In this document: positions 2-44,455 of the stretch, one piece after another
Layout: the number at the start of each line of letters is the position of its first letter
How positions within the stretch are numbered: the first letter of the stretch is position 1
Assembly (NCBI GenBank): GCA_023920165.1
Contig: CP089280.1
Span: 2,852,001-2,896,455 of the forward strand
Direction: 5' to 3'
DNA length: 44,455 nucleotides
From: Curvularia clavata
Taxonomy: Eukaryota
The notes under the pieces: generated by a model
Told to the model about the DNA's origin: nothing
Databases searched by the model: none
Seen by the model: the letters and a program-made list of their open reading frames with translations, nothing else
Position numbers and translations under genes: made by a program

Positions 2-388
2 CTTGAAAGCACTGGTGATTTTGAGGACGGTGTGTATGACTGGATGAAACCTAACAGCCATACAGGCTGGAAAGCCATGAAAACCAACTCCGTGGTTCCA
101 CAGATGCACCCCTTCAGCGTTCGCCAGAGCTTCCCTACCGCCGCTGTTATTCACAACCAACGCAACACGGCACGTCTGCCATCGGAGTACCACCGCTGGA
201 TAGAGCCCCTCCGGAACTGGGACCAAGCTCAGTTTCTATACAGCGAATCGAACCTGATCCAGAGTCAATACCACGCAATACACTCGAATTGTTCAAATGC
301 ACAGCCATTGGAACAACAGTCAGCCCCTGAGGTAGAGGACTTCATGCAGAAGTTCACCAATACAATCTGTTGCAGGAGCCGCAGATAA
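2..388 (+). CDS. 3' end of an unknown ORF running in from outside the window (possible Starship cargo)
   Basis: Frame is open from position 2 to TAA at 388. Composition is not RIP-like. It is convergent with the recombinase. No recognisable domain. Confidence 0.3.
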   Translation, partial: LESTGDFEDGVYDWMKPNSHTGWKAMKTNSVVPQMHPFSVRQSFPTAAVIHNQRNTARLPSEYHRWIEPLRNWDQAQFLYSESNLIQSQYHAIHSNCSNAQPLEQQSAPEVEDFMQKFTNTICCRSRR

Positions 389-831
389 CAAGCCTGTTGC
401 CTGAACCATAAACCTTTCTTGCATGTTTCATTGCGAATGGCGACTTCGGTGGGGGTTTTCTGCTTGCTGGGTTCTCCGCGCTAAGATATGCTACTCACCT
501 CTTTCTCTGTAGATAGCGATTAACATGTGAATGATCTTTCTGAGGCTTTTCATACTTCAACCTCTACCTCGTCTTAAGATAACTAGAGAATATGACACAA
601 GACGAGAGAACGCTTCATACTCTGTTCGTAATGCAGTCGTGCAGCTTCGTTGAGCGTGTAACACACAAACTACTTCCTCTAAGATATTTAATCTTTTCTT
701 GTTCAGAGTAAATGGGTTTCTGTACTTGGACAATATCCTTTTTTCTTTGGCACATATGGCACGAAAAAGGCCTTGAAAGTATTATTGAGATGCTTGGGGG
801 ATGGGGTTGGCTTAATAGAGGCCGCCTTGCT

Positions 832-3163
832 CTACCTGAAGTTATTTGAAACAGTGCCATGCTGCTCAAAAGCATGCCGACGCATGTGCAGCGAATTACT
901 AAGGTGCACCTTGCATAGTCTGCATTCCTCACCTTTGCTCTCGTTGAACTGCATTAGATGTCGTTTGAAGTGTTTGCTGAGGTCGCCTGGTGATGCAAAG
1001 CAGTATAAACGTTTTTCCAAGACTAGACCTTCGTTTCCCAGACATATGAAGCATATCTTTGGTCTATTTTCCTTGAAAAAAACATCTTTCGCCTCTTCGA
1101 TAGCCTTCTTCCGCGTATCATCAGTCTCTTGAGGCTTGTAGTTGGCGCAGGGGTCTTCTGCGCGCCTTCTTGGCATCTCTCCTTCTTCAAAACTGCAGTA
1201 GTCTTTAACTGCATTGATGGCTTCAACTTTTCGTGTCATCTCTGCTGCAACAGATGATTCAGGCGGCGATGTGGCGGCCAGAATCAACCTTTCGTGCCCT
1301 TGTGTTCTTTGAGATTCTTTTGGGACAGTTTCCATCTTTTCCTCAAATCCTTTACCCAAAAGTTGTTGCTGTATATCCTTCTCTGGTTGCGTTTTTTCGT
1401 AGTCTCTCCTAGATTGCCGTAATATTTGGTAGCGCATCCTCTGCTTTTTGTTACGGATATCCCGTTTACACTTTTCATACTCTTGTATATTCATGCTGTT
1501 TTGTTTCAGCCTTTTCTCCATTTTTTGGATTTCCGGGTCTTTTGCGATAGACTGTTTCTGCTCGCTAGTGAGGTATCGAGGTCGATTTGGATCGATCGAT
1601 CGGCTCATGCTGCATGCCGCCTGGATGAGATCTCTCTGAGGCTGCGTACTTCGTACAACCGCTTGTACATCTAAGCTGATGGTTCTCGAGAAGTAATGAT
1701 CTTTGAAAACCTTATCATTAGAGTGATTCATGATCCCATTTCGCATGTTGCTGCTAACGTCCACTATGGTCCCAGCCAAGTTAGCTTTCCTTTTCTTTTC
1801 TACCATCTTCAATTTTTGCTTATCACTCACGGCTTCTATCAAAGGCGTTGCCTGTTCCGTATCGGAAACTGTACGGTTTCAACACTTCTCGAAATCCAGC
1901 AATATGACCAATGTCTTTCAAATGCGTTTTGATAGTAGCATATGGTAACTGGTCGTTACTCATCTCACGTTTTGTTGCTATCTGTTCGTATCGACGGAAA
2001 ACCCAGAGATCAGCTGCTTCGTCTTTGATGGGCACAACGAGTTGGTTGCAGCCGGATCGAATCTCCAGCTTGTACAAACGCTCAGGAGTCAGACTATCAA
2101 TCGAAAAGACTTTGTCAGCAAACATGAGGCCCAGTAGGTAGACGTGAGGGCTCATGTGACGAAATCTGTCGTACTCGATTTCAGGGATTATAAAAGTGTT
2201 CCTAGTACATTAGCGGATTCCGCATGGTCGCAGAAGCTGTTCGGATGTCTGTATACGTACGATGGTTTGGATCCTAGGTATTGCTTAGTTACTCTGTATG
2301 TCAATTCTATCATGAGTTTATGTGCGCCACCGTTTGGATTTCGCATTATGATGACTTTGATATCTCTATAGCGCAATCCAAGAAGTGCTCCAGGACGATT
2401 CGCAGTGATAAAAGCCGTTAGCATGAAGAGACATGCCTGGATACGGTATCTTCCCATCTGAAAACTCATGCTGTTGGTCAAGAGAGTTGTTTCGACGATT
2501 CTTTTCACATCTTCTGCGTCTAGGGAAGACTTTTCCCTCGGTTCATAACTCAACTTGAGCTCTTTAGCCAATGCTGTTGCTTCCTTGTAGATATGTTAGC
2601 GCCTCTTATGGGGTGCAGCCGGTTAAAAAAAACTAGTACAACTAACATTTAGAGTTTCTCTTTCGACTTTTTTGCTCATTGTCTCCCCTGTCAACTTTCT
2701 ATACAATGTGATGAACATCTTCCTGTGCGTGGAGAGTGAACTGGCTGATTTCATTCCGGGAAGCTTCCTTCCTTTTGCTCCTTTAGTTTGCTGCAGCCTC
2801 CACTTGAGATAGTCTGAAAATGCCTTCCCTGAGATAGACCGCATCGCCGTCCGTGGTTCACATCGTTTCGTTGTGCAATATCTTCATAGTGTTCAGCTTT
2901 CGAAAATGGAGGGTAATAAGTGCACATGAAGGGGAGAAATGGTGATGAAAGACTTACTTTTCCCATTGCTCCTCCATACGCTTGATCTGGAGCTCCGTGG
3001 TTTCTGCATAATACCCTGACGGATAGCTAGATCCATTTTCAGACATTTCATTGCCGCTAAGAACATCCGTTTGTGATTTTGAGTCGTTTCCAGTGTTGTA
3101 TTCGAGGTGCTTGTGTGACAAGGAGGAGGGCATCGATACGGAACTCGTGCGATTGCAATCCAT
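832..3163 (-). CDS. DUF3435 tyrosine recombinase (Starship captain-type) with C-terminal C2H2-like zinc motifs, about 688 aa, 5 exons
   Basis: Exons 3163-2958, 2881-2647, 2583-2261, 2201-1831 and 1763-832 join in frame via GT..AG introns (2067 nt). Tyrosine recombinase motifs occur in order: TANRPGALL (R), RVTKQYLG (K), PYSFRYG (YxxR), IMNH (H), FKDHY (Y). DUF3435-typical SMSRSIDPNRPRYLT is present. The C-terminus has CFIC..HFKRH..CRLC..HAFEQH. The start could alternatively be the ATG at about 3046. Confidence 0.88.
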
Positions 3164-22248: not shown

Positions 22249-22390
22249 TGTATCGGCGTAGGCAAGACTACTCGGATCAGTATCGGCAGGTAGCGTCACT
22301 CAGAGGCATATGGGAGTGCGTGGGACAATAGAAGAGCCTTAATTCAAATAGACACATATAGGCCTAACTAATATGAGGCCGCGAATCAAC
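22249..22390. repeat. Degenerate partial LTR related to the LTR of the young gypsy element at 36038/42965
   Basis: TGTATCGGCGTAGGCAAGACTA..GCGTCACTCAGAGGCATATGGGAGTGCGTGGGACAATAGAA aligns to TGTAACGGCGCGAGCAAGACTA..GTGTCACTCAAATGCATATGGAAGTGCGTGGGACAGCAGAA. Confidence 0.7.
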
Positions 22391-34952: not shown

Positions 34953-36037
34953 GTTGTAGGTAGGTAAATAGAATAACTTTCTTAATTAACTAAAATAGCT
35001 TATTAAGAGGTGAGAAATAGATACAAAATATCTAGTAAGTGGTCAAAATGTAGGTAATAAGTAGATATATTGGAGCTAGGTTATCAAATAACTATAGACA
35101 GTCAGCGTCTTTTATAGACAACTAACGGAGATAGGCGCTGCGTCTATTTCCTATCTTGATTTCAAATCAACTACTAGACTAAAGTATAATTAGATTAGTT
35201 TTTTATCTTTTTTATGATTTATAAGATTTTATTATAGACTAAGATCTTTATAATCTAGCTTGCTAAGCAAGCTAGAGCTAAAATATAGAATAATGACGTC
35301 TTATATCTAGATAAGAAAACGGAGAAATACTTAAAATTCTCGGCAGTTAATAGCTACATTAAATGTAGAGCTACAAGAACAAAAACAACTAATTTGAATA
35401 GCTAATCTTTTATAGAATAATACTAAAATATAATATAATAATTATATTATAATTTACACACTCCCTTAATGATTATATTATTATAATCTTATCATTTAGC
35501 TTAATATACTAATGGTAAGTAATATAATTATATATCTAATAAGCTTAATATTCTTAATTAGATATTTTAATTAGACTAAATTTACTTTTAGATAATAGCT
35601 TAATATACTAAATATCTAATTTTCAAAATAACGTGGTTCACAAGCGAGCGGCTCACCCAACCGAGCGGCTCACGCCCCACCAGCGCGCCGACGTCGACAC
35701 TACAACGCGTTATGTCTCAGCAACGCGATAATCAATCAACTTATCCTGAATCAGATCTTTAACTTGCTTTTTTTGATGTCCAATCGCAACGTGTTTAAAG
35801 CTAAAGACGTGCTGCCTCTATCTATAACGTGCCTTAAAGAACTTTATCTTACCGACGCGCTGGAAGACGCTCTCGACGCGACTGCGAACCGAATTCAAAG
35901 CGCCTAAATAAGCTAGAAGAGGAGGCTATAGTTAAGCGTATTCTTGAAGAGTCTGCGCGAGGATTTGCGCCTACAAAGGCTGACGTTCAAGTAATAGCTA
36001 ATAAACTATTGTATGAGCGGGAGAGCAACCTTACTGG

Positions 36038-36308
36038 TGTAACGGCGCGAGCAAGACTAGTCGAATCGGTTCCGGTGGGAAGTGTCACTCAAATGCATAT
36101 GGAAGTGCGTGGGACAGCAGAAACACCTTGGATTCGGTAGACACTCATAGGCCTGGTACGAAAGGATATCAAAAATCTACCGAACATCTATGGAAGGTAC
36201 CTGGTACTTATACCTGGGTGCGGGTCTTCATCGGGTCTGACCCGGCTCTCAATCGGATCTTGATAAGCTGCCCTGGCTGGGGTATGTTTTGGTCTATGCA
36301 TGGTTACA
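36038..36308 (-). repeat. 3' LTR (271 bp)
   Basis: Identical by eye to 42965-43235. Confidence 0.97.
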
Positions 36309-36322
36309 TTACCCCCCCTCCC
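36309..36322 (-). other. Polypurine tract
   Basis: Minus strand reads GGGAGGGGGGGTAA immediately before the 3' LTR. Confidence 0.85.
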
Positions 36323-36793
36323 GGTAGACAGCTGGTCCCACAGCTGTCTGTTCCGGTTGTCATTCTTCTTCCCTGCACCATGGGGTCCCTCGTTCCTGAT
36401 TTCCCCCAGATTTTCCCCACACTGCGCCACTTCGGGCAATAGGATGCTCCGGTTCCGGTGTGGCTCCCGTGGCCGTGCATGTCCTTCACTTGAGCCTCTG
36501 TGCCTGAGCCTCAGTGACCATTCCGGTACTCACGTGGCGCTGCTGCCTTGCTGCCTGGCCGCTAGGCCGTTTGCCTTCACCTGCCAGACAGGCCTGGACG
36601 CTTCGATCGGAGCTCCGAGTCGCCGGCGATTCGTTTGTAGTCAGGGTCCAACGGCTATCCAGGTCACGTGTGCCAAGACTGTTTGCTCCCCCAGTGTGTA
36701 TATCAACAACAACACAGTGTCGCCGCCGAGTTTTCTCCTCCACGCTTCTCAATCAAAACAAGTCAATTACAACTCAACGCACTCGTTTTCGCT

Positions 36794-37461
36794 ATGCCTC
36801 TTCGTTGTCCGCCCGGTGCGCTGCCGGATGCGTATCGCTTCATCTGTCTGCGAGCTGTCCGCGCCTTGGCGCGCCGTCAGTTCGACATTGCTTACGCCTA
36901 CCCGTCCGATTCCTCCAAGAAGTGTCTTTATTGCACCCAGCAGAAGGAGAAGTGCGATCCTGTAAGTTTGCTTCTCTTTTCCTTCACTGTTTGCAGCTTG
37001 GCTAACCCGGATAGGTTCCCGAGTACGTCTTCGAGGAGTTTCACGATTTGATCGATGCCATCGAGTTGTGTGCCATCGCTCGGTATGGCCCTGCAGTTGA
37101 TGCCGATACGGAGGTATTGCTTGATCGAATCGCTGCCGCCGCTTTGGACATCGCCCGCAAGGTCCAAGTTGTCAGGTCCCAGGAGAAGGAGCTTTCAGTC
37201 AATCAGCTCCTCGTCGCCCAGAACCAGGTCCTGAGGGACATCCGAGACAGCATCTCGGAGTTGGTCGATACAGTCAATGGCATGGAAAGGCGCCTTTCGC
37301 GTCTTGAGGCCAGGTCGGCTCGGGGTGGCGCCCGGGTCGGCCCTCGGGTCGAGGAGTCGGAGGAATGGTCTGGTTTGTCCTCCTCCTCAGAGGAGGACAA
37401 GGGTGCGGTTGACCAGGAGATGGCCGACGCTGAGCAGGAGCGCTCTGATGTTGAACTTTGA
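36794..37461 (+). CDS. Extra antisense spliced gene inside the retrotransposon, about 204 aa (Cys-cluster N-terminus, predicted coiled coil, acidic tail)
   Basis: Exon 1 is 36794-36961 (56 codons). A 53-nt intron (GTAAGT..GCTAAC..TAG) spans 36962-37014. Exon 2, 37015-37461, is in frame. Protein: MPLRCPPGALPDAYRFICLRAVRALARRQFDIAYAYPSDSSKKCLYCTQQKEKCDP|VPEYVFEEF...EQERSDVEL. Confidence 0.72.
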
Positions 37462-37559
37462 GTGAGGTGACATTTTGGGGGTTTGTTGGTGGTTGTGGGG
37501 TTCGGGTCCGAGTTTCCTTTGTTACTGATACCCAATGAAGTTTCTGTTTTTCCTTTTCT

Positions 37560-40500
37560 TTAAATTTTGTCATCCTGCAGTGAAGTCATATCCTCTGTGC
37601 CTTGTTCCCATGCCGTGATCCACTTGCCAAGGGAACGTGGGGGTCCCGGTTTGGTGGGATGTTGTTCATGGAAGAGTTTGAGCTTGTGTGGGGCTCCCAT
37701 GAAGTTTGAGGCTGGGTACCAGGTAGGATCCGGGTCATGTCCGACCCACCGTACTTGGTATTTTAGGTTTGAGCGGTACAACTTGCTTGCTAGGATTTCT
37801 TCTACCTCCCATTCTTCCACGCCTTGGATGGGAGTTGCTGGGGGCTTTGGAGGTTCTTGTCCTGGGAGGGGGTCTTGAGGATCTTTGCATAATAGATCCG
37901 GGGCGAAGACATCATGGATCCGGGACCTTTTCGGAAGGTCCAAGCGGTATGAATGTCCTACCTTCTCAAGTACCCTGAAGGGTCCCTCCCATTTGGAGGA
38001 TAGCTTCCTACTCGGACGGTCTGACGCGAGGTTCCGGGTACTTAGGAAGACCATGTCTCCCACATCCCAGTCAACAGAACGACGATGGCGGTTGACTGTG
38101 GTTCGCATCCTGTCCTGGGCTTTCTCCATTTGTTCCTTAGCTACCTTCCATGCGTCGTGCATGCGGGTAGCCATTTCCAATGCATCCTTATGGTTGAGTT
38201 TGTCAGTGGGGGTGAGAAGGCTGGTGGAATGTTTCCAGTCCCAACTCTGCCGGGGTTCGGAACCATATAGGATGTGGTACGGGGACATGCCAATGGAAGA
38301 ATGTGGTAGGGAAATTTGAGCACGATCGATCAAAGGTAGAAGTCCACTCCAGTTGTCTTGGTAGTAGGATACGAATGGGCGCAACCTCTGATCGATGTAC
38401 TTATTCATAATCTCTGTCTGACCATCCGTTTCTTTGTGGTAGGCGGTTGACAGCTTGACCTTAACGCCTAGGATTCGGCAGAATTCCGACCAGAAGCTTG
38501 AAATGAACTGTGGTCCTCGGTCAGAGACTATGGTTTCAGGTGTGTGGCCAAATCGGTACACCCATTGAACGAATAGGTCGGCCATTCCCCTTGCATCAAT
38601 AGTCTTGTGGCAGGGGATGGAGATGGCCTGCTTAGATAACCGGTCGATCACGACCATGATCATGTCGTAACCGGATCGGTCTCGGGGAAATTCCTTAAAG
38701 TCGATGCACAGGTGCTGCATCGGCCGGTCAGGAGAATTGGCAAAGGATGAATCATCCCTGGAATTCGGGTCTGTCTAGGATGGGCCTTCCTACAGGCTAT
38801 GCAATTCCGCACATACCTTTTACAGGTGGATTCCATACCCTTCCAGTGGTACTTCTGGGACAGTAGTTGGTAGGTCTTCTTTGCACTGGGGTGCGCTGAG
38901 GATACCTGGTCGTGTACTTCCCGAATGAGGCGAGTCACAAGGGTAGAGGTGGAAGGAATGCATAGGCGGTTGGAATAGAGCAGGAGTCCGTTTTCGATCC
39001 GGTATCTGTCCGGAAGGGACCTTCGCTCTGCCCCAAACGAGGCTCGGTTCTCTTGTAGGATAGACTCGATCAGCTCCAGCGAATCGAGGGACATCGGCTC
39101 CGATATGGGCTCAACTACAAGTAAGGAGAAAGATTCCGCTTGGAGTTGGGCTACATAGGTCTTAGCAAGTTCGGAGTTGATTCGGTTGTCAAGTCGGTGC
39201 GGTCCCAGGAGGACCCGCGAACGGTTGTCAATTTGGGCTGTCTTCAGATTCCCCACATCTTGCTCCCGTCGGGAGAGGATGTCAGCACGAGCATTATCCT
39301 TTCCGGGGGTGTATCGGATGTGGAAATTGAAGGATGCCAACTCTTCCGCCCATCGCACCTGGCGGGCATTCAGAACTTTGGTAGTCATGAAGTATTCAAG
39401 GGAACGGTGGTCTGAGTACACGTCGACACGAGAGCGTACCGACAGCAGTTCAGGTCGCCACTTGCTAAACGCCGTTACGATGGCGAATAGTTCTTTGTCG
39501 TGTATTTCCCAGTTCAGCTCAGACCCGGATAGGACCTTGCTGAAGAATGCTACAGGACACCAATTTCCATTTGGCTGCTTTTGGGAAAGAACGCCTGCCA
39601 CAACGCCATCGGACGCGTCGGTCTCCACCTTGGTATCATACTCTGGATGGTAGTGGTACAAGGTGGGAATTGCCAGCAGTGCAGATTTTAACCTTTCAAA
39701 GGCTTGGTCGCACTCCGAATCCCATACGAATGGTCTTGAGGGGCTCTGGAGGGCGAGGAGAGGTTTCGCAATTCGCGAGTATTCAGGAACGAACTGCCTG
39801 TAGAACCCAGTGAACCCTAGGAACGACTTCACACCAGTAACGGTGGTAGGTCGGACCCAATCTTGAAGGGCTTCCACCTTGTCAGGGTCCACCTCTAGAC
39901 CTTGGTTGGTCAAAATGTACCCTAGGTATTTGGTCCGAGTGACATGGAATTCGCTTTTCTTGATGTCAACTTGGAGACCGGCTTGCCTAAGCCTTTCCAA
40001 GACCTGTTGTACGTGGCGGGGGTGGTCCGGTTCCGATTCGGAGTAGATCAAAATGTCGTCTAGGTAGACTATGCAGAAGCTGTCTAGATAATCAATCAAC
40101 ACATCATTCATGTAGCGTTGATATGTTGCAGGGCCGTTGCATAATCCAAAAGGCAACACTTTGGACTTGTAGGTTCCGTATCTAGTGCGGAACGTGGTGT
40201 ACTCCTCCGAGTCGGGGTGCATTCGGATCTTGTTGAATGCCGCACGTATGTCGAGCTTGGTGAAGATTTTCGCCTTGTGGGTGCGGGCTAGAAGCTCGTC
40301 AATGCGTGGTATCGGATACGCATCCTTTCTGGTGATTGCGTTGAGTCGGCGGTAATCTACACAGATGCGAATGTCTCCGTTTGGCTTCCGAACACAAAGG
40401 ACTGGGGAGGCGAAGGGGCAGTGGCTTGGGTCAATGTGTCCTTTCCTAAGGTTTTCCATTACGAACGTCTTGGTGGCTTCGAGTTCTTCAGTGCTCTGCT

Positions 40501-41497
40501 TGTACAGAGGACTGAATTGATTCGGAAGAGGTTCGGTCAGCACAATCTTATGATCGTATGGGCGATGTTCGGGCAGTAGCTCTGCCGCTGTCTTGCTGAA
40601 GACATCGCGGTACGAATGGTAAGCGGATGGAAGTCGGTCCCGAACAAGTTTGGCGTTTTCGGGATCGTCTGGCTTCATGCGCTCTTCTAAGATGCGATCG
40701 ATCTCATAGATACTTGTCGTGAAGAACTCGTTTTCCTTACGCTTCATAGAATAATGGAAAGCATTTGCCGAAATGATGGCGATACGGGGTGAAGATGTTG
40801 GTCGGATAGGGTCCGGAGTAGGGTCGGGAACAGGTAGTGGTAGACGAACCTTGGGAAGTTTGAGGCATCCTCTAATTCTTCGCATGAGAGCTTTGCGAGG
40901 ACTGTTTTGCCTACGGTAGTTGTCCTTTTCCCATAGTGCGTCTCGCCTCTGTATGTCCCGTTCCACATCAGCATCGATGGAAGGTTGTTTCAACTGTACA
41001 AGGATAGGTGGCGCGGGATCATATGTTGGAGGGTACTTGGCCGGCCATACGATCCGGTTCCGGCTCGTATCAAGCCTAAGCTGGAAACGTCTTAACCACT
41101 TGATTCCAATTATGCAGTCCTGTGTCCCTAGATCCATGATCACGAAGGGACAGTTGTAAATCTTTCTTCCATCGATTCGGATATGTAACCGAATATATTT
41201 GTCTACCCTAGTTTGGACTTGGTCCTGAAATCCTTTGACTGTGATCTTGAAGGGAAGTCTTCGGATGGGGACCTGAAGGGAGCCGGAGAGGGTACGAGCA
41301 ATAGCAGAATTTAAGAATAAAAAGCCTTGGGCTCCAGTGTCAACTAAGGAGTGCAAGCTGACACCAAACCCTTTCGAACAAAGAACGGTGGGTACTAGGA
41401 AGTGTTTTCCTCCGAACAAGTGGGATAAATCAATTTTAGCTAGATCGTACTTGTTCATGCCTAGGGCGGAGAGTTTTCCTAGGCCTGGTGGTTTCCC
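37560..41497 (-). CDS. pol: Pol polyprotein (protease, RT, RNase H, integrase, chromodomain) with an internal frameshift at about 38733
   Basis: LVDTGA, YLDDILIYS, ETDASD..IHDKEL, HDQVSSAH..CIAC, IVSDRGPQF..TDGQTE, GPF and chromodomain EWEVEEIL..YQVRWVG. Split across ORFs 38660-41584 and 37560-38720. Confidence 0.92.
41459..41497 (-). promoter_or_regulatory. -1 ribosomal frameshift signal (GGGAAAC slippery site plus downstream hairpin)
   Basis: G GGA AAC at 41497-41491 lies in the gag/pol overlap. It is followed by the stem GCCTAGG-N12-CCTAGGC. Confidence 0.75.
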
Positions 41498-42669
41498 GCC
41501 CGGTCCTCCTCCGATAAGTATTCGTGTGCTTCTTCGAATTCTTCCTTCTCTGCTTCGATTTCTCGAACCCGAGGAATGGGGCACTCATTCGCATAATGTC
41601 CAGGTTTTCCGCAGTTATAGCAATTGCTAGTAGTCGGTTTGCTATCCAGTGCGGGGGTCTTTGAAGGGAACCTGGGGGTATTAGAATGAGCGCGAGATTG
41701 GGTCGGAGCTGGTTCGGATCGGACTCCATAAGTGTTTGGGCGGTAGTCCCGGTATTGACTGACGCGGGGCTTCGTTGGTGGAGTACGAGAATTATTGGAA
41801 GTGGGTTCCGAACCGTGTCCGAAAGGAGTGTTCCTTCTTTCGGTATCGAAGGCAGTAAGGTGTTGTATCATCTTGTCAAAGGAGTTGTTCCACTGGTGTT
41901 TAAATCCCAAGTTTGGAACACGCAAGGCGGGGGTAATTTTTTCCCATAAGTAGAAAAACCACTCCGACTTCGATACGGATCCTTTGACGGCAGCACTTAT
42001 AAATTTTGCCTTAAATTCAGCGAAGGTTTCCTTTTTGTCCATGAGCAAGCGGTGGAAAGCAGCGCGGCTTTCCGCTTGCTCGTTGCCGGATACGAAGTAT
42101 GATTTTAGAGTAGCTATCATATCTTCGGCGTTTTGGAACCGGTCCTCCACCGAATCGGCTAGGTACTGTGGTTCCAGGTATCCCTTGGCGATACCTGTAG
42201 TATGTCCCCAGACTAGAGCCATGCGTGCGCGTTCACTCCGATAATGGTCCGCGTTGATTGTTAAGCGGTCCTCTATTGACGCTTGCCATTGGCGGAACGT
42301 AGGTTCTGTTCCATCACTAAGGTTATCAATGGAAGGGGTACGTTCTGTGAGTTTGACACGTAGCAGGTCCGGGGTTGCTGACTGGTACCTTCCGAATTGA
42401 GTTTCGGTTGGTTCAGCGATAGTCGGTGGTGATTCGGTGGAGGGGAGAGGTTGATCTGGGGCTGCGGTGTTTTGGCGGGACAGCCGTGCGATTTGTTCGT
42501 TTAGCCTGTCGATCTCTGCCCGAAGGAGGCTAGTCTCATCCTCTTCCGAATCCTCTTCCTCTTCGACGGCTGGCGGTTTGCCAGGCGTCTTCTCTCTTGA
42601 CTTCGAATCTTGGAAGCGCGGCGACTTCCTGGAAAGCTCTCCTGAGCCGGATGGGGTTCGGTCAGCCAT
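41479..42669 (-). CDS. gag: Gag protein, 396 aa
   Basis: Retrotransposon gag region with C-terminal zinc knuckle CYNCGKPGHYANEC. Confidence 0.93.
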   Translation of the reverse strand: MADRTPSGSGELSRKSPRFQDSKSREKTPGKPPAVEEEEDSEEDETSLLRAEIDRLNEQIARLSRQNTAAPDQPLPSTESPPTIAEPTETQFGRYQSATPDLLRVKLTERTPSIDNLSDGTEPTFRQWQASIEDRLTINADHYRSERARMALVWGHTTGIAKGYLEPQYLADSVEDRFQNAEDMIATLKSYFVSGNEQAESRAAFHRLLMDKKETFAEFKAKFISAAVKGSVSKSEWFFYLWEKITPALRVPNLGFKHQWNNSFDKMIQHLTAFDTERRNTPFGHGSEPTSNNSRTPPTKPRVSQYRDYRPNTYGVRSEPAPTQSRAHSNTPRFPSKTPALDSKPTTSNCYNCGKPGHYANECPIPRVREIEAEKEEFEEAHEYLSEEDRAGNHQA

Positions 42670-42949
42670 CGACGGTTGTCTTCGTGGCTGATGGGTTTTT
42701 GGTAGTCTCCGAGTCTCTACCTTGGCGCAATCTACGCGACTTCTCCGAAGTTAACCTGACTGCAATCAGTACAGGAGGTCCAAACCCAAAGGCTTCGGTC
42801 GGCGGGAGATCGAAGGGATCCCGCCTGTGTGTGAATGTGGGACGTAACGGTGTGAAGTATCCGGAGCGGTTCCGGAGGGACTTGGGCTTGGGCGCGGTCT
42901 CAACAAACAAGCTGCGATATTGTTTTGAAGGCCGTCACCGGCTGGGACG

Positions 42950-42962
42950 AGATTTTTGATAT
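42950..42962 (-). other. Self-priming (Tf1-type) primer binding site
   Basis: Minus-strand ATATCAAAAATCT lies 2 nt inside the 5' LTR boundary and is perfectly complementary to LTR sequence 43093-43105. Confidence 0.75.
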
Positions 42963-42964
42963 AA

Positions 42965-43235
42965 TGTAACGGCGCGAGCAAGACTAGTCGAATCGGTTCC
43001 GGTGGGAAGTGTCACTCAAATGCATATGGAAGTGCGTGGGACAGCAGAAACACCTTGGATTCGGTAGACACTCATAGGCCTGGTACGAAAGGATATCAAA
43101 AATCTACCGAACATCTATGGAAGGTACCTGGTACTTATACCTGGGTGCGGGTCTTCATCGGGTCTGACCCGGCTCTCAATCGGATCTTGATAAGCTGCCC
43201 TGGCTGGGGTATGTTTTGGTCTATGCATGGTTACA
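42965..43235 (-). repeat. 5' LTR (271 bp)
   Basis: Identical by eye to 36038-36308. Confidence 0.97.
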
Positions 43236-44337
43236 ACTGGCAAGAACTGGGTTGATAACTTTATTAAGCAAACTCCTAAGATCTATACGCGCTAGAGCCG
43301 TCCCTATAATCACCAGCAAGCCGCCTATAAGGATCTAGTAGCTATCTAACGCTGGTTTAACTTAGTCTAGGCGATGAAGTAGAAGTGGGGTATTGTAGAC
43401 AACGATATATATAATTTTGACGAGACTAGCTTTATAATAGGTAAAATTTTATTATAGTTAGTTATTACAGGCTCAGAAGAATATAGCAAAAAGAAGCGGG
43501 TATAGCCAAACAACTGTGAGTAGGTTACTACAATCTAAGGCGTAGACGCGTTGGGTTGCTAGATACTACCCTTTATTATTTTTGCGGGCAAGGTACTTAT
43601 TAACGTCTAGTTTAAAAATTTGCCTACTGACTGGGTTCTTAAAGTTAGTTCTAATAGCTGGACGAATAATTAGCTTGGTATTGCCTAGCTAGAGTACTTT
43701 GATATCTATACAAAGAGGCATACTATAGATAGGTATCGACTACTGATTATTGATGGCCATAAGAGCTACTGCTCCGTCAAATTTTAAGATCTTTGTAAGG
43801 AGAAGAATATCGTTCTTCTCTGCATATCTGCGCACTCGTCTCACCTGTTGCAGCCTCTTGACGTCGCCTACTTCTCGCCGTTGAAGCGCAAGTATGGCGA
43901 CGCTGTTTCAGGCTTGGCACGCAACCACACCAACTATATTAGTAAGGAGACCTTCCTGCTAGCCTTTAAGGCGGCTTTTAAGCAGTCTATTACAAAAGAG
44001 AATATCTAAGCTAGCTTTAGAGGCGCTGGTCTAGTCCTACACAACCCACAGGCTATACTATTAAAGCTTGATGTGGTGGTGCAGACACCACATCAATCAC
44101 CGCGATAGGCAGCCGCCTGGGAGGCGTAGACACTACGCAACGCGCGCGAGGTTGAGGCTTAAATTGATCTTATTCAACAGAGCGTGAGAAATCGCCGTGG
44201 GTCTTCTGCTAATTCACTTACCGAGCAGATCGCGCAGTTGAGTAAAGGGGCTCAGCAAATGGCACATAAGATGGTGCTTCTGACAGAGAAAATTACTACT
44301 CTTCAAGCGGCTCTTGACGAGTCAAATAAGCGTAAGA

Positions 44338-44455
44338 TAGGGTTAGGGTTAGGGTTAGGGTTAGGGTTAGGGTTAGGGTTAGGGTTAGGGTTAGGGTTAG
44401 GGTTAGGGTTAGGGTTAGGGTTAGGGTTAGGGTTAGGGTTAGGGTTAGGGTTAGG
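44338..44455 (+). repeat. Telomere (TTAGGG)n
   Basis: Perfect TTAGGG array (18 full units plus partial ends) running to the end of the sequence, with the G-rich strand 5'->3' toward the end. Confidence 0.97.

Follow-up and report, generated by a model that had tools for sequence, protein, structure and literature searches.

A conserved antisense gene with one intron in a Ty3/gypsy chromovirus of Curvularia clavata, and the small putative regulator that it may encode

The window analyzed here (44,455 nt of the Curvularia clavata contig CP089280.1, meaning the whole stretch of DNA under study) contains a complete Ty3/gypsy chromovirus on its minus strand, at positions 36038–43235. Its two LTRs, each of 271 nt, are 100% identical and occupy 36038–36308 (3′ LTR, TGTAAC...GTTACA) and 42965–43235 (5′ LTR) on the minus strand. 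The element is flanked on both sides by the target-site duplication ACTGG, at 36033–36037 and 43236–43240. A polypurine tract, GGGAGGGGGGG, lies at 36312–36322 (minus strand), 3 nt from the 3′ LTR. According to Pfam, gag (41479–42669, minus strand) carries a CCHC zinc knuckle, and the proximal part of pol (38660–41458, minus strand) encodes protease, reverse transcriptase (RT), RNase H and the integrase zinc finger. The distal part of pol, in a different reading frame (37560–38720, minus strand), encodes the integrase core (Pfam rve, 7.7e-15), SH3_Tf2-1 (2e-13) and a chromodomain, for which the Pfam match (Chromo, E = 2.2e-5) reached 24.7 bits, just below the cut-off of 25.1. The element thus combines a CCHC gag, the protease, RT, RNase H and integrase in gypsy order, and a C-terminal chromodomain of this marginal score, as expected of a chromovirus. 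It is young and complete.

In the interval from the polypurine tract to the pol stop codon (37560–37562, minus strand), the plus strand contains a two-exon gene for a 204-aa protein. Exon 1 (36794–36961, plus strand; 56 codons from the ATG) codes for a conserved Cys domain, and exon 2 (37015–37461, plus strand; 148 codons and a TGA stop) for a helical region and an acidic tail. The phase-0 intron between them (36962–37014, plus strand; 53 nt) reads GTAAGT...GCTAAC...TAG. An initial annotation, made from the sequence alone, had described such an intron-containing antisense gene as belonging to the retrotransposon. We verified the exons, the intron and the 204-aa product, and the gene is bracketed by the LTRs, the ACTGG duplication and the polypurine tract. 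The 5′ flank (36323–36793, plus strand) is the presumed promoter and 5′ UTR. In this flank, the TATA-like stretch proposed in the initial annotation was located as GTATATCAA at 36698–36706 (plus strand), 96 nt before the ATG. The flank also contains CGGTTCCGG at 36450 (plus strand), which was not found in the six metagenome loci described below (L001–L006). The gap converging on pol, likewise noted before, measures 98 nt from the stop of the antisense gene to that of pol (37462–37559). The placement of the gene inside the element, from the pol stop to the polypurine tract and 3′ LTR, and its strand (plus, against minus for gag and pol) are those of the genes known as aORF-3Rs in plant retrotransposons. 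The intron would survive retrotransposition because it is antisense to the genomic RNA.

We searched public reads for a transcript of the gene. The SRA search gave 17 matching runs in 12 studies, of which four (X1, X2, X4 and X5) were examined. No spliced exon joint was seen in these four runs, in three of which (X2, X4 and X5) uncovered stretches were uninformative. The intron was retained in all four public contigs that bridged it, including one from X5, the only run recorded as RNA. These contigs give no strand and could be DNA or the sense RNA of the element. In run X1, the copy of the gene differed by one synonymous change, against four in the 98-nt gap that follows it.

The predicted spliced product is identical, letter for letter, to an annotated C. 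clavata protein (P0005). This exact sequence occurs under at least four accessions on three contigs, and there are at least seven annotated copies in C. clavata when three further proteins (P0003, P0004 and P0006) are counted. An exhaustive HMMER search recovered relatives in 55 clusters at E ≤ 1e-3 and in 16 at E ≤ 1e-10, all of 48–304 aa. The antisense ORF is therefore more than a chance reading frame, being identical to an annotated protein and having 55 clusters of relatives. Those relatives that could be named, from 20 of the 55 clusters looked up and three named lists, came from nine Pleosporales and four Helotiales species, and matches in the ESM Atlas were confined to Ascomycota clusters. 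No Pfam model was found for any of the relative families. Outside C. clavata, the gene was multi-copy in Exserohilum turcicum (four accessions), Plenodomus lindquistii (four) and Diplocarpon rosae (five), so that at least four genomes contain it in several copies.

A metagenome scan with an alignment of six close sequences uncovered six loci (L001–L006). Four of these (L001–L004) represent one organism, leaving four independent DNA contexts with the window included. The initial annotation had suggested looking for homologues lying antisense downstream of gypsy integrases, and the scan found them: in L005 and L006, the gene is antisense and lies 61 nt and 98 nt, respectively, beyond an integrase-chromodomain ORF with 74% and 82% identity to that of the window. 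The gene is therefore element-borne in three of the four independent contexts. Its repeated annotation in C. clavata and its identical place in L005 and L006 correspond to the conservation expected of an aORF-3R. The phase-0 intron site, after a C-x-P codon, was kept in all four loci compared. The intron measures 53 nt in the window, 47 nt in L006, 54 nt in L005 (with an in-frame TGA) and 51 nt in L002 (with an in-frame TAG). All four have GT...CTRAC-like...AG signals, and the remaining intron sequence is dissimilar. Five gene-caller proteins translate through the insert at this site. The gene and its intron site are thus conserved among family members, as the initial annotation had anticipated.

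The relative in L001–L004 is free-standing: neither gag nor pol nor an LTR was present in the 8 kb to each side of it, and in L002 it neighbours ordinary genes, namely an amidase and a DUF2293 gene. The protein can therefore exist outside an element. This relative would fit a captured host gene, or one merely situated beside elements, with a cellular role unrelated to the element. We consider such an origin very unlikely, because the window gene lies inside an element bounded by target-site duplications, the same antisense place recurs in three elements with 74–82% identical pol, and the gene is multi-copy in several genomes. In addition, a tree (midpoint root only) placed the free-standing copy in one clade with the element-borne L006 (support 98/94), and L005 and the window copy, both element-borne, in neighbouring clades. 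A variant of the host-gene explanation is that an old capture may have occurred at the base of the lineage. The gene is probably part of a Pleosporales/Helotiales chromovirus lineage and inherited along with its elements.

The spliced ORFs were intact in all four loci despite nucleotide identities of 48–65%. The NG86 estimates of dN/dS were 0.14–0.38 in the five pairs, of six, for which they could be computed, that is, below 1 as the initial annotation had expected, but dS was saturated (ML dS 7–22) and the ratio is unreliable. The antisense protein evolves 3–5 times faster than the integrase (dN 0.34–0.71 versus 0.12–0.19). The N-terminal domain showed a mean identity of 52%, compared with 18–28% in the rest of the protein. 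Among 33 sequences, C18, C47 and C54 were present in all and C44 in 32. These patterns bear on the idea that the transcript and not the protein matters, the ORF being secondary: antisense RNA would pair with genomic RNA and give double-stranded RNA and small RNAs, which would limit copy number. By geometry, the 3′ part of the genomic RNA and any plus-strand transcript of 36700–37560 are complementary throughout, and the fast evolution of the protein also agrees with a role of the RNA. Such a possibility has been raised for antisense aORFs in a review (PMC7264820). We regard it as quite improbable here, since it leaves unexplained the intact ORFs in four diverged loci, the near-invariant cysteines, the higher conservation of the N-terminal domain and its confident fold model (see below). 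Roles of the RNA and of the protein could coexist.

The 204-aa protein contains the cysteine motif of the initial annotation, C-x25-C-x2-C-x6-C, as C18-x25-C44-x2-C47-x6-C54. The structure prediction called for in that annotation gave a confident four-Cys N-terminal fold (pLDDT 85.7 for a model of this domain), followed by long helices and an acidic tail. The full-length AF2 model had a mean pLDDT of 79.9, with helices at residues 59–80, 88–115 and 118–159 and a disordered tail. A homodimer prediction with two copies of residues 1–165 scored 0.03, which points neither way. Full-model matches in VIA-align were generic helical hairpins only (Z ≤ 7.7).

Zinc clusters of the Zn(II)2Cys6 type have six cysteines spaced C-x2-C-x6-C-x5-12-C-x2-C-x6-8-C, of which the window protein has four. 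The suggestion of a half or degenerate cluster of this type finds weak backing in the structure comparison. When the N-terminal model was compared with 48,161 chains by VIA-align, only three matches reached Z ≥ 2, and all were Gal4-type zinc clusters, although weak ones: Gal4 (1aw6; Z 2.8, rmsd 4.3, 40 aligned residues), Leu3 (2er8; Z 2.1, rmsd 2.1, 37 aligned) and Pho7 (6o19; Z 2.0, rmsd 5.4, 40 aligned). The relatives from Helotiales, moreover, have six cysteines, arranged as C-x2-C...H-x-C...C-x2-C-x6-C with a first spacer longer than in Zn(II)2Cys6; one extra cysteine was present in all 10 sequences and the other in 8 of 10. Across the 33 sequences, 11 have a Cys at position 21 and five at position 34. 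On the other side, the exon-1 product had no match to Zn_clus (PF00172) at E ≤ 0.1, and Zn_clus was not among the 25 listed of the 28 Pfam families matched by 29 members at E ≤ 1. Foldseek found no PDB match at E ≤ 0.001 for the full-length or the N-terminal model, and two family profiles found no zinc-cluster chain among PDB sequences at E ≤ 10. The Pfam matches of the family were weak noise of coiled-coil type, as were the PDB sequence-profile matches, one of which was Dad2 (2.6e-5, with the Helotiales profile). The four-Cys N-terminal domain of 55 residues is probably a single putative zinc site that arose from a Gal4-like cluster with six Cys.

Direct repeats of CGG-N8-CGG are frequent in the elements that carry the gene. 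The observed numbers, compared with those expected, were 32 versus 4.5 in the window element, 18 versus 2.9 in L006 and 13 versus 1.5 in L005. In the U3 of the window element, four CGG/CCG triplets in exact 11-nt phase (36221–36256, minus strand) form a candidate enhancer or binding array that ends 8 nt upstream of TATAAG (36212–36207, sense strand). Within the pol of L006, the enrichment was not significant against a synonymous-codon null (3 versus 1.1; 51 of 500 shuffles attained this number). CCGG-N7-CCGG was ruled out as the origin of the CGG signal, with only three occurrences in the window. The zinc-cluster factor AmyR is described as having CGGN8CGG as its site (PMC4943734). The repeats need not be the target of the antisense protein and might serve a host factor. 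A further but unlikely scenario is that the chromovirus lineage encodes its own miniature Gal4-like factor. Its domain of four Cys, ancestrally six, would recognize YCGGR half-sites separated by one helical turn (CGG-N8-CGG). Such sites would have accumulated through the body of the element and in the four-unit array upstream of the U3 TATA box, and factor and sites together would constitute a private LTR switch, or a tag by which the DNA of the element is either marked for host silencing or protected against it.

A different function for the protein would be that of a structural or trafficking cofactor of retrotransposition that would help, for instance, to assemble particles, to chaperone nucleic acids or to enter the nucleus. 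Nucleic-acid chaperones can contain small zinc-binding domains, for example gag zinc knuckles, and the long helices of the protein would also suit this function. Nuclear localisation or import is among the options given for aORF proteins in the review (PMC7264820). We find a cofactor rather improbable, because the Cys domain matched no folds other than DNA-binding zinc clusters, weak as these matches are, and a transcription factor would account better for the acidic tail and for the CGG repeats that lie in phase upstream of the LTR TATA.

Taken together, these observations describe what is likely a third gene of a young and complete Ty3/gypsy chromovirus, located opposite gag-pol, with one short intron, inherited within a lineage and coding for a three-part protein for which a regulator is the foremost candidate. 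Situated in the interval from the pol stop to the polypurine tract, the gene would be transcribed under a promoter of its own, and splicing would give a product with a 55-residue Cys domain, a helical hairpin, a helix of 40 residues and an acidic Ser/Glu tail that is disordered. We tentatively propose, as the leading reading of this architecture, that the product is small and nuclear, binds nucleic acid or chromatin, and regulates the transcription or silencing of its own element. Such a regulator would be built as a miniature Gal4-type factor, and its role may be comparable to that played in complex retroviruses by antisense accessory proteins.

That LTR retrotransposons can carry extra genes in antisense has been known from plants for more than two decades and from Botrytis since 2011, and to our knowledge none of these genes has an assigned function. 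The window copy is well suited to experiments: the element around it is complete and its LTRs are identical, and the fungus can be cultured and has a finished genome. The gene itself is intact and multi-copy, with a small product for which there is a confident fold model and with a candidate motif, CGG-N8-CGG, at the LTR promoter. Should the protein prove to regulate by binding DNA, self-encoded control of transcription would be a feature of fungal retrotransposons as well as of complex retroviruses, and many "hypothetical proteins" of Pleosporales and Helotiales would be explained.

Among cellular proteins, the Gal4-type factors (Gal4, Leu3, Pho7 and AmyR) resemble the window protein in the order of an N-terminal Cys domain, a helical region and an acidic tail, and its C-x2-C-x6-C corresponds to the second half of their cluster. 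The window protein differs from them in having four cysteines instead of six, in being far smaller and encoded by a mobile element, and in giving no match to the Pfam Zn_clus model. We found no report of a zinc-cluster antisense gene in fungal retrotransposons among the papers listed in our literature searches. An animal retrovirus, HTLV-1, encodes HBZ, an antisense, spliced, coiled-coil/helical nuclear protein that regulates transcription from the LTR. The likeness is an analogy of layout, both genes being on the strand opposite to the genome and near the 3′ LTR of a retroelement, and the two proteins have no kinship in sequence or fold. The 3′ LTR of HTLV is described as containing an antisense promoter (PMC7264820).

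The initial annotation regarded the arrangement as an undescribed system, but this layout was already known from Botrytis, where the fungal chromovirus Boty has the antisense gene brtn located after pol and before the 3′ LTR (Zhao et al. 2011, Virology 417:248, as cited in PMC8365987, PMC7264820, PMC4227169 and PMC5987419). As described in those papers, brtn shares with the window gene a chromodomain-bearing gypsy element, the opposite strand, the position from pol to the 3′ LTR and many copies. The hosts differ, brtn occurring in Sclerotiniaceae and the window element in Pleosporales. Neither BRTN nor Botrytis appeared among the named matches (20 of the 55 clusters looked up by name and the named lists), and no Botrytis protein was among the four matches of a profile search with Helotiales members; the likeness to brtn is one of layout. 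In plants, gene23 of maize Grande, rice RIRE2, Silene Retand and Phaseolus PvRetro13 are listed as aORF-3R cases (PMC7264820). As characterized in that review, these resemble the window gene in where they lie and on which strand, in being kept by most copies of a family and in lacking similarity to known proteins, and they are proposed to have their own promoter and suspected of a nuclear or regulatory role. They belong mostly to non-chromovirus lineages and their proteins are unrelated. Unlike them, the window gene has a conserved spliceosomal intron and a product with a confident model of a small Cys-domain fold.

The minus-strand element at 36038-43235 is a Ty3/gypsy chromovirus (7198 bp) that is complete and was inserted recently, because its two 271-nt LTRs (3' LTR, 36038-36308; 5' LTR, 42965-43235; minus strand) are direct repeats with 100% identity, the same five bases, ACTGG, flank it on both sides (36033-36037 and 43236-43240), an 11-nt purine run (36322-36312, minus strand) precedes the 3' LTR by 3 nt, and the domain set of gag-pol is present. 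Each LTR has the termini TGTAAC (5') and GTTACA (3'). The minus-strand ORFs code for gag, which contains a CCHC knuckle, and then for protease, RT, RNase H, integrase zinc finger, integrase core, SH3_Tf2-1 and a chromodomain that scored 24.7 bits against a cut-off of 25.1. The G+C content is about 52% in the element and the adjoining DNA is AT-richer. A TTAGGG telomere repeat occupies 44338-44455, up to the end of the window, about 1.1 kb from the end of the 5' LTR; the insertion is therefore subtelomeric. The pol region lies in two frames that overlap within integrase (38660-41458 and 37560-38720; overlap region 38660-38740). At 38732, a contig of the public sequencing run X1 is shorter by 2 nt, and the related metagenome locus L006 has a single open pol frame; the window thus carries either a pol frame break, despite its identical LTRs, or an assembly error. 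Elsewhere in the window, a 117-nt segment at 22249-22365 shares 76% identity with the LTR (its first 117 nt, read on the plus strand) and may be the relic of an older related LTR. An ORF at 835-1878 (minus strand) contains a DUF3435 domain (E 3.4e-41), which corresponds to the tyrosine-recombinase-like domain found in Crypton and Starship-type elements.

The element contains a two-exon gene on the plus strand, opposite to gag-pol, located between its polypurine tract and the stop of pol. Exon 1 (36794-36961) has 56 codons from the ATG at 36794, the intron (36962-37014) is 53 nt long with the signals GTAAGT, GCTAAC and TAG, and exon 2 (37015-37461) has 148 codons and a TGA at 37459-37461. Scripted joining of the exons gave a product of 204 aa, and every detail observed in the initial annotation was correct. 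The sequence GTATATCAA is located at 36698-36706, 96 nt upstream of the ATG, and 98 nt separate the stop of the antisense gene from the end of the minus-strand ORF 37560-38720.

In all four loci compared (the window and the metagenome loci L006, L005 and L002), the intron site is identical, in phase 0 directly after the proline codon of a conserved C-x-P motif. All four introns need to be removed to keep the frame, because their lengths are not multiples of three (53 nt in the window and 47 nt in L006) or they contain in-frame stops (TGA in the 54-nt intron of L005 and TAG in the 51-nt intron of L002). Each has a GT(A/C)AGT donor, a branch motif of the CTAAC, CTGAC or CTTAC type and a YAG acceptor, and the intron sequences are unalike outside these signals. 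An insert exactly at the shared site is also seen in five family proteins (P0011, P0061, P0031, P0042 and P0048) that were predicted by pipelines blind to introns. No splice joint was reported over 36000-39000 in four public runs, whose contigs drop rare forms. The intron was retained in all four run contigs that bridge it, which may represent DNA or the sense RNA of the element; one of the four comes from the only run recorded as RNA. The comparison of the loci and family proteins is good evidence for plus-strand splicing of the gene, and its transcription would therefore be antisense to the element.

A scan of metagenome contigs with a six-sequence alignment revealed six loci encoding a relative, out of 107 pattern matches. 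In L005, an integrase-chromodomain ORF that is 74% identical to that of the window lies on the opposite strand, 61 nt beyond the gene (330-1031, plus strand). In L006, 98 nt separate the gene (1671-2287) from an opposite-strand pol ORF that is 76-82% identical to that of the window. Homologues are thus placed antisense behind a gypsy integrase elsewhere (L005 and L006), and the gene is element-borne in three of four independent DNA contexts, the window included. The remaining context is a single relative with 42% identity found in four sibling records (L001-L004; 8001-8531 in L002), which keeps the shared intron site. No gag, pol or LTR was detected within 8 kb on either side of it, even at E ≤ 50, and the genes next to it are ordinary ones that encode an amidase and a DUF2293 protein. 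A maximum-likelihood tree, built from the 29 proteins of the family alignment with 140 aa or more (shorter rows dropped), separated Helotiales from Pleosporales members, grouped the window protein with those of Bipolaris and Exserohilum, and placed the free-standing copy and the element-borne L006 in one clade (support 98/94). On the midpoint root, the only rooting used, the free-standing copy reads as derived, possibly domesticated or stranded. In L006, the LTR region also directly adjoins the gag of a second element copy (3-587), which could represent a tandem pair with a shared LTR or an assembly effect, and a 24-nt unit is repeated three times (1435-1506), about 170-235 nt upstream of the antisense-gene ATG.

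A word-index search with the exon-2 product retrieved two Curvularia clavata proteins and no others. The spliced product is identical to P0005, which has at least four accessions on three contigs, and with P0003 (one change), P0006 (a longer N-terminus) and P0004 (178 aa, several changes), the annotated C. clavata copies number at least seven. The differences of P0003 and P0004 from the window copy, as codon changes deduced at the protein level from the window's codons, mostly fit C-to-T or G-to-A transitions (e.g. R79W and C18Y), and the predicted splice of P0004 differs; some copies seem to be decaying. Exhaustive searching of 1.84 billion representatives with HMMER yielded 55 clusters at E ≤ 1e-3 (16 at E ≤ 1e-10), with all members 48-304 aa long and therefore no large fused forms among them. 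No Pfam domain was found in any family member searched. Hosts named from 20 of the 55 clusters and three further lists fall in two orders, Pleosporales (Bipolaris victoriae, B. maydis, Exserohilum turcicum, Clathrospora elynae, Polyplosphaeria fusca, Plenodomus lindquistii, Didymella keratinophila and Setomelanomma holmii) and Helotiales (Stipitochalara longipes, Cadophora sp., Diplocarpon rosae and D. coronariae). Near-identical copies occur within species (four accessions in E. turcicum, four in P. lindquistii and five members in D. rosae) and many members sit on contigs of 1-4 kb, a pattern expected of a gene travelling with a repeat.

The spliced ORFs are intact in all four loci despite nucleotide identities of 48-65%. 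NG86 dN/dS ratios were 0.14-0.38 for the five of six pairs that could be computed, with dS saturated, and the protein changes three to five times faster than the integrase of the same elements. In the X1 copy, the gene differs by one synonymous substitution (GTC to GTT at 37275), but the 98-nt gap that follows has four changes. Mean identity is 52% in residues 1-58 and 18-28% elsewhere; three of the four cysteines (C18, C47 and C54) occur in all 33 sequences and the fourth, C44, in 32. The Helotiales branch has six cysteines, with C21 in 10/10 members, C33 in 8/10 and additionally H31 in 10/10, and four are kept in the Pleosporales branch.

AlphaFold2 applied to the 29-sequence alignment gave a full-length model (mean pLDDT 79.9) with a compact N-terminal domain containing short helices (19-26 and 45-50), a hairpin of helices 59-80 and 88-115, a long helix (118-159) and a disordered acidic tail. 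The whole model matched only generic helical hairpins. When the N-terminal 56 residues were modelled alone (pLDDT 85.7), just three of 48,161 representative chains reached Z ≥ 2, all of them Zn2Cys6 DNA-binding domains: Gal4 (Z 2.8), Leu3 (Z 2.1; rmsd 2.1 Å over 37 residues) and Pho7 (Z 2.0). The resemblance to a half or degenerate Zn2Cys6 cluster noted in the initial annotation has weak structural support from these sole fold matches: the scores are low, Foldseek found nothing with the N-terminal model and sequence profiles gave no link between the family and Zn_clus. We read the region as a predicted zinc-binding domain that shares ancestry with, or has converged on, the Gal4 cluster and was reduced to a single putative metal site in the window's branch; it is not an established member of the Zn2Cys6 family.

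The element is also rich in repeated motifs. The 9-mer CGGTTCCGG has five exact copies in the window (0.12 expected), all within the element and in one orientation (36067, 36450, 41055, 42867 and 42994), at sites in both LTRs, the 5' leader, pol and upstream of the antisense gene; no copy was found in L001-L006. Direct CGG-N8-CGG (or CCG-N8-CCG) pairs number 32 in the element (4.5 expected), 18 in L006 (2.9) and 13 in L005 (1.5), against 12 (5.6) in the remaining 36 kb of the window. This strong excess extends through all three related elements and is not seen in DNA outside them. Other spacings were mostly near expectation; N7 and N9, in the two opposed orientations, were also raised in the window and L006. 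CGG autocorrelation peaked at 11 and 22 nt, and L002 showed no 11-nt peak. Under synonymous-codon shuffling, the pairs remained in excess in the window's proximal pol (12 against 1.5, reached in 0/500) and gag (4 against 0.8, reached in 4/500), and the L006 pol was not significant (3 against 1.1, reached in 51/500). The half-site is YCGGR, and four triplets in exact 11-nt phase in the LTR (U3) end 8 nt upstream of a sense-strand TATAAG. The canonical site for AmyR, an activator of the zinc-cluster type, is CGGN8CGG (PMC4943734). As a hypothesis, the repeats might be read by the element's own protein, by a host factor, or by neither.

Comparative data support an element-borne, intron-containing antisense accessory gene. 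The suggestion of an undescribed system is not supported, because PMC7264820, a review of additional antisense ORFs that lie between pol and the 3' LTR in plant elements, gives Boty of Botrytis cinerea and Sclerotinia sclerotiorum as an example from fungi. Zhao et al. (2011), the primary paper on the Boty antisense gene (brtn), is cited in PMC8365987 and PMC4227169, and PMC5987419 reports a BRTN match for Monilinia transcripts. No report of a zinc-cluster-like antisense gene of fungal retrotransposons was found in the limited literature collection searched. The case in the window is an unusually well-preserved example of an already known kind of antisense gene, and it comes with a testable hypothesis on its function.
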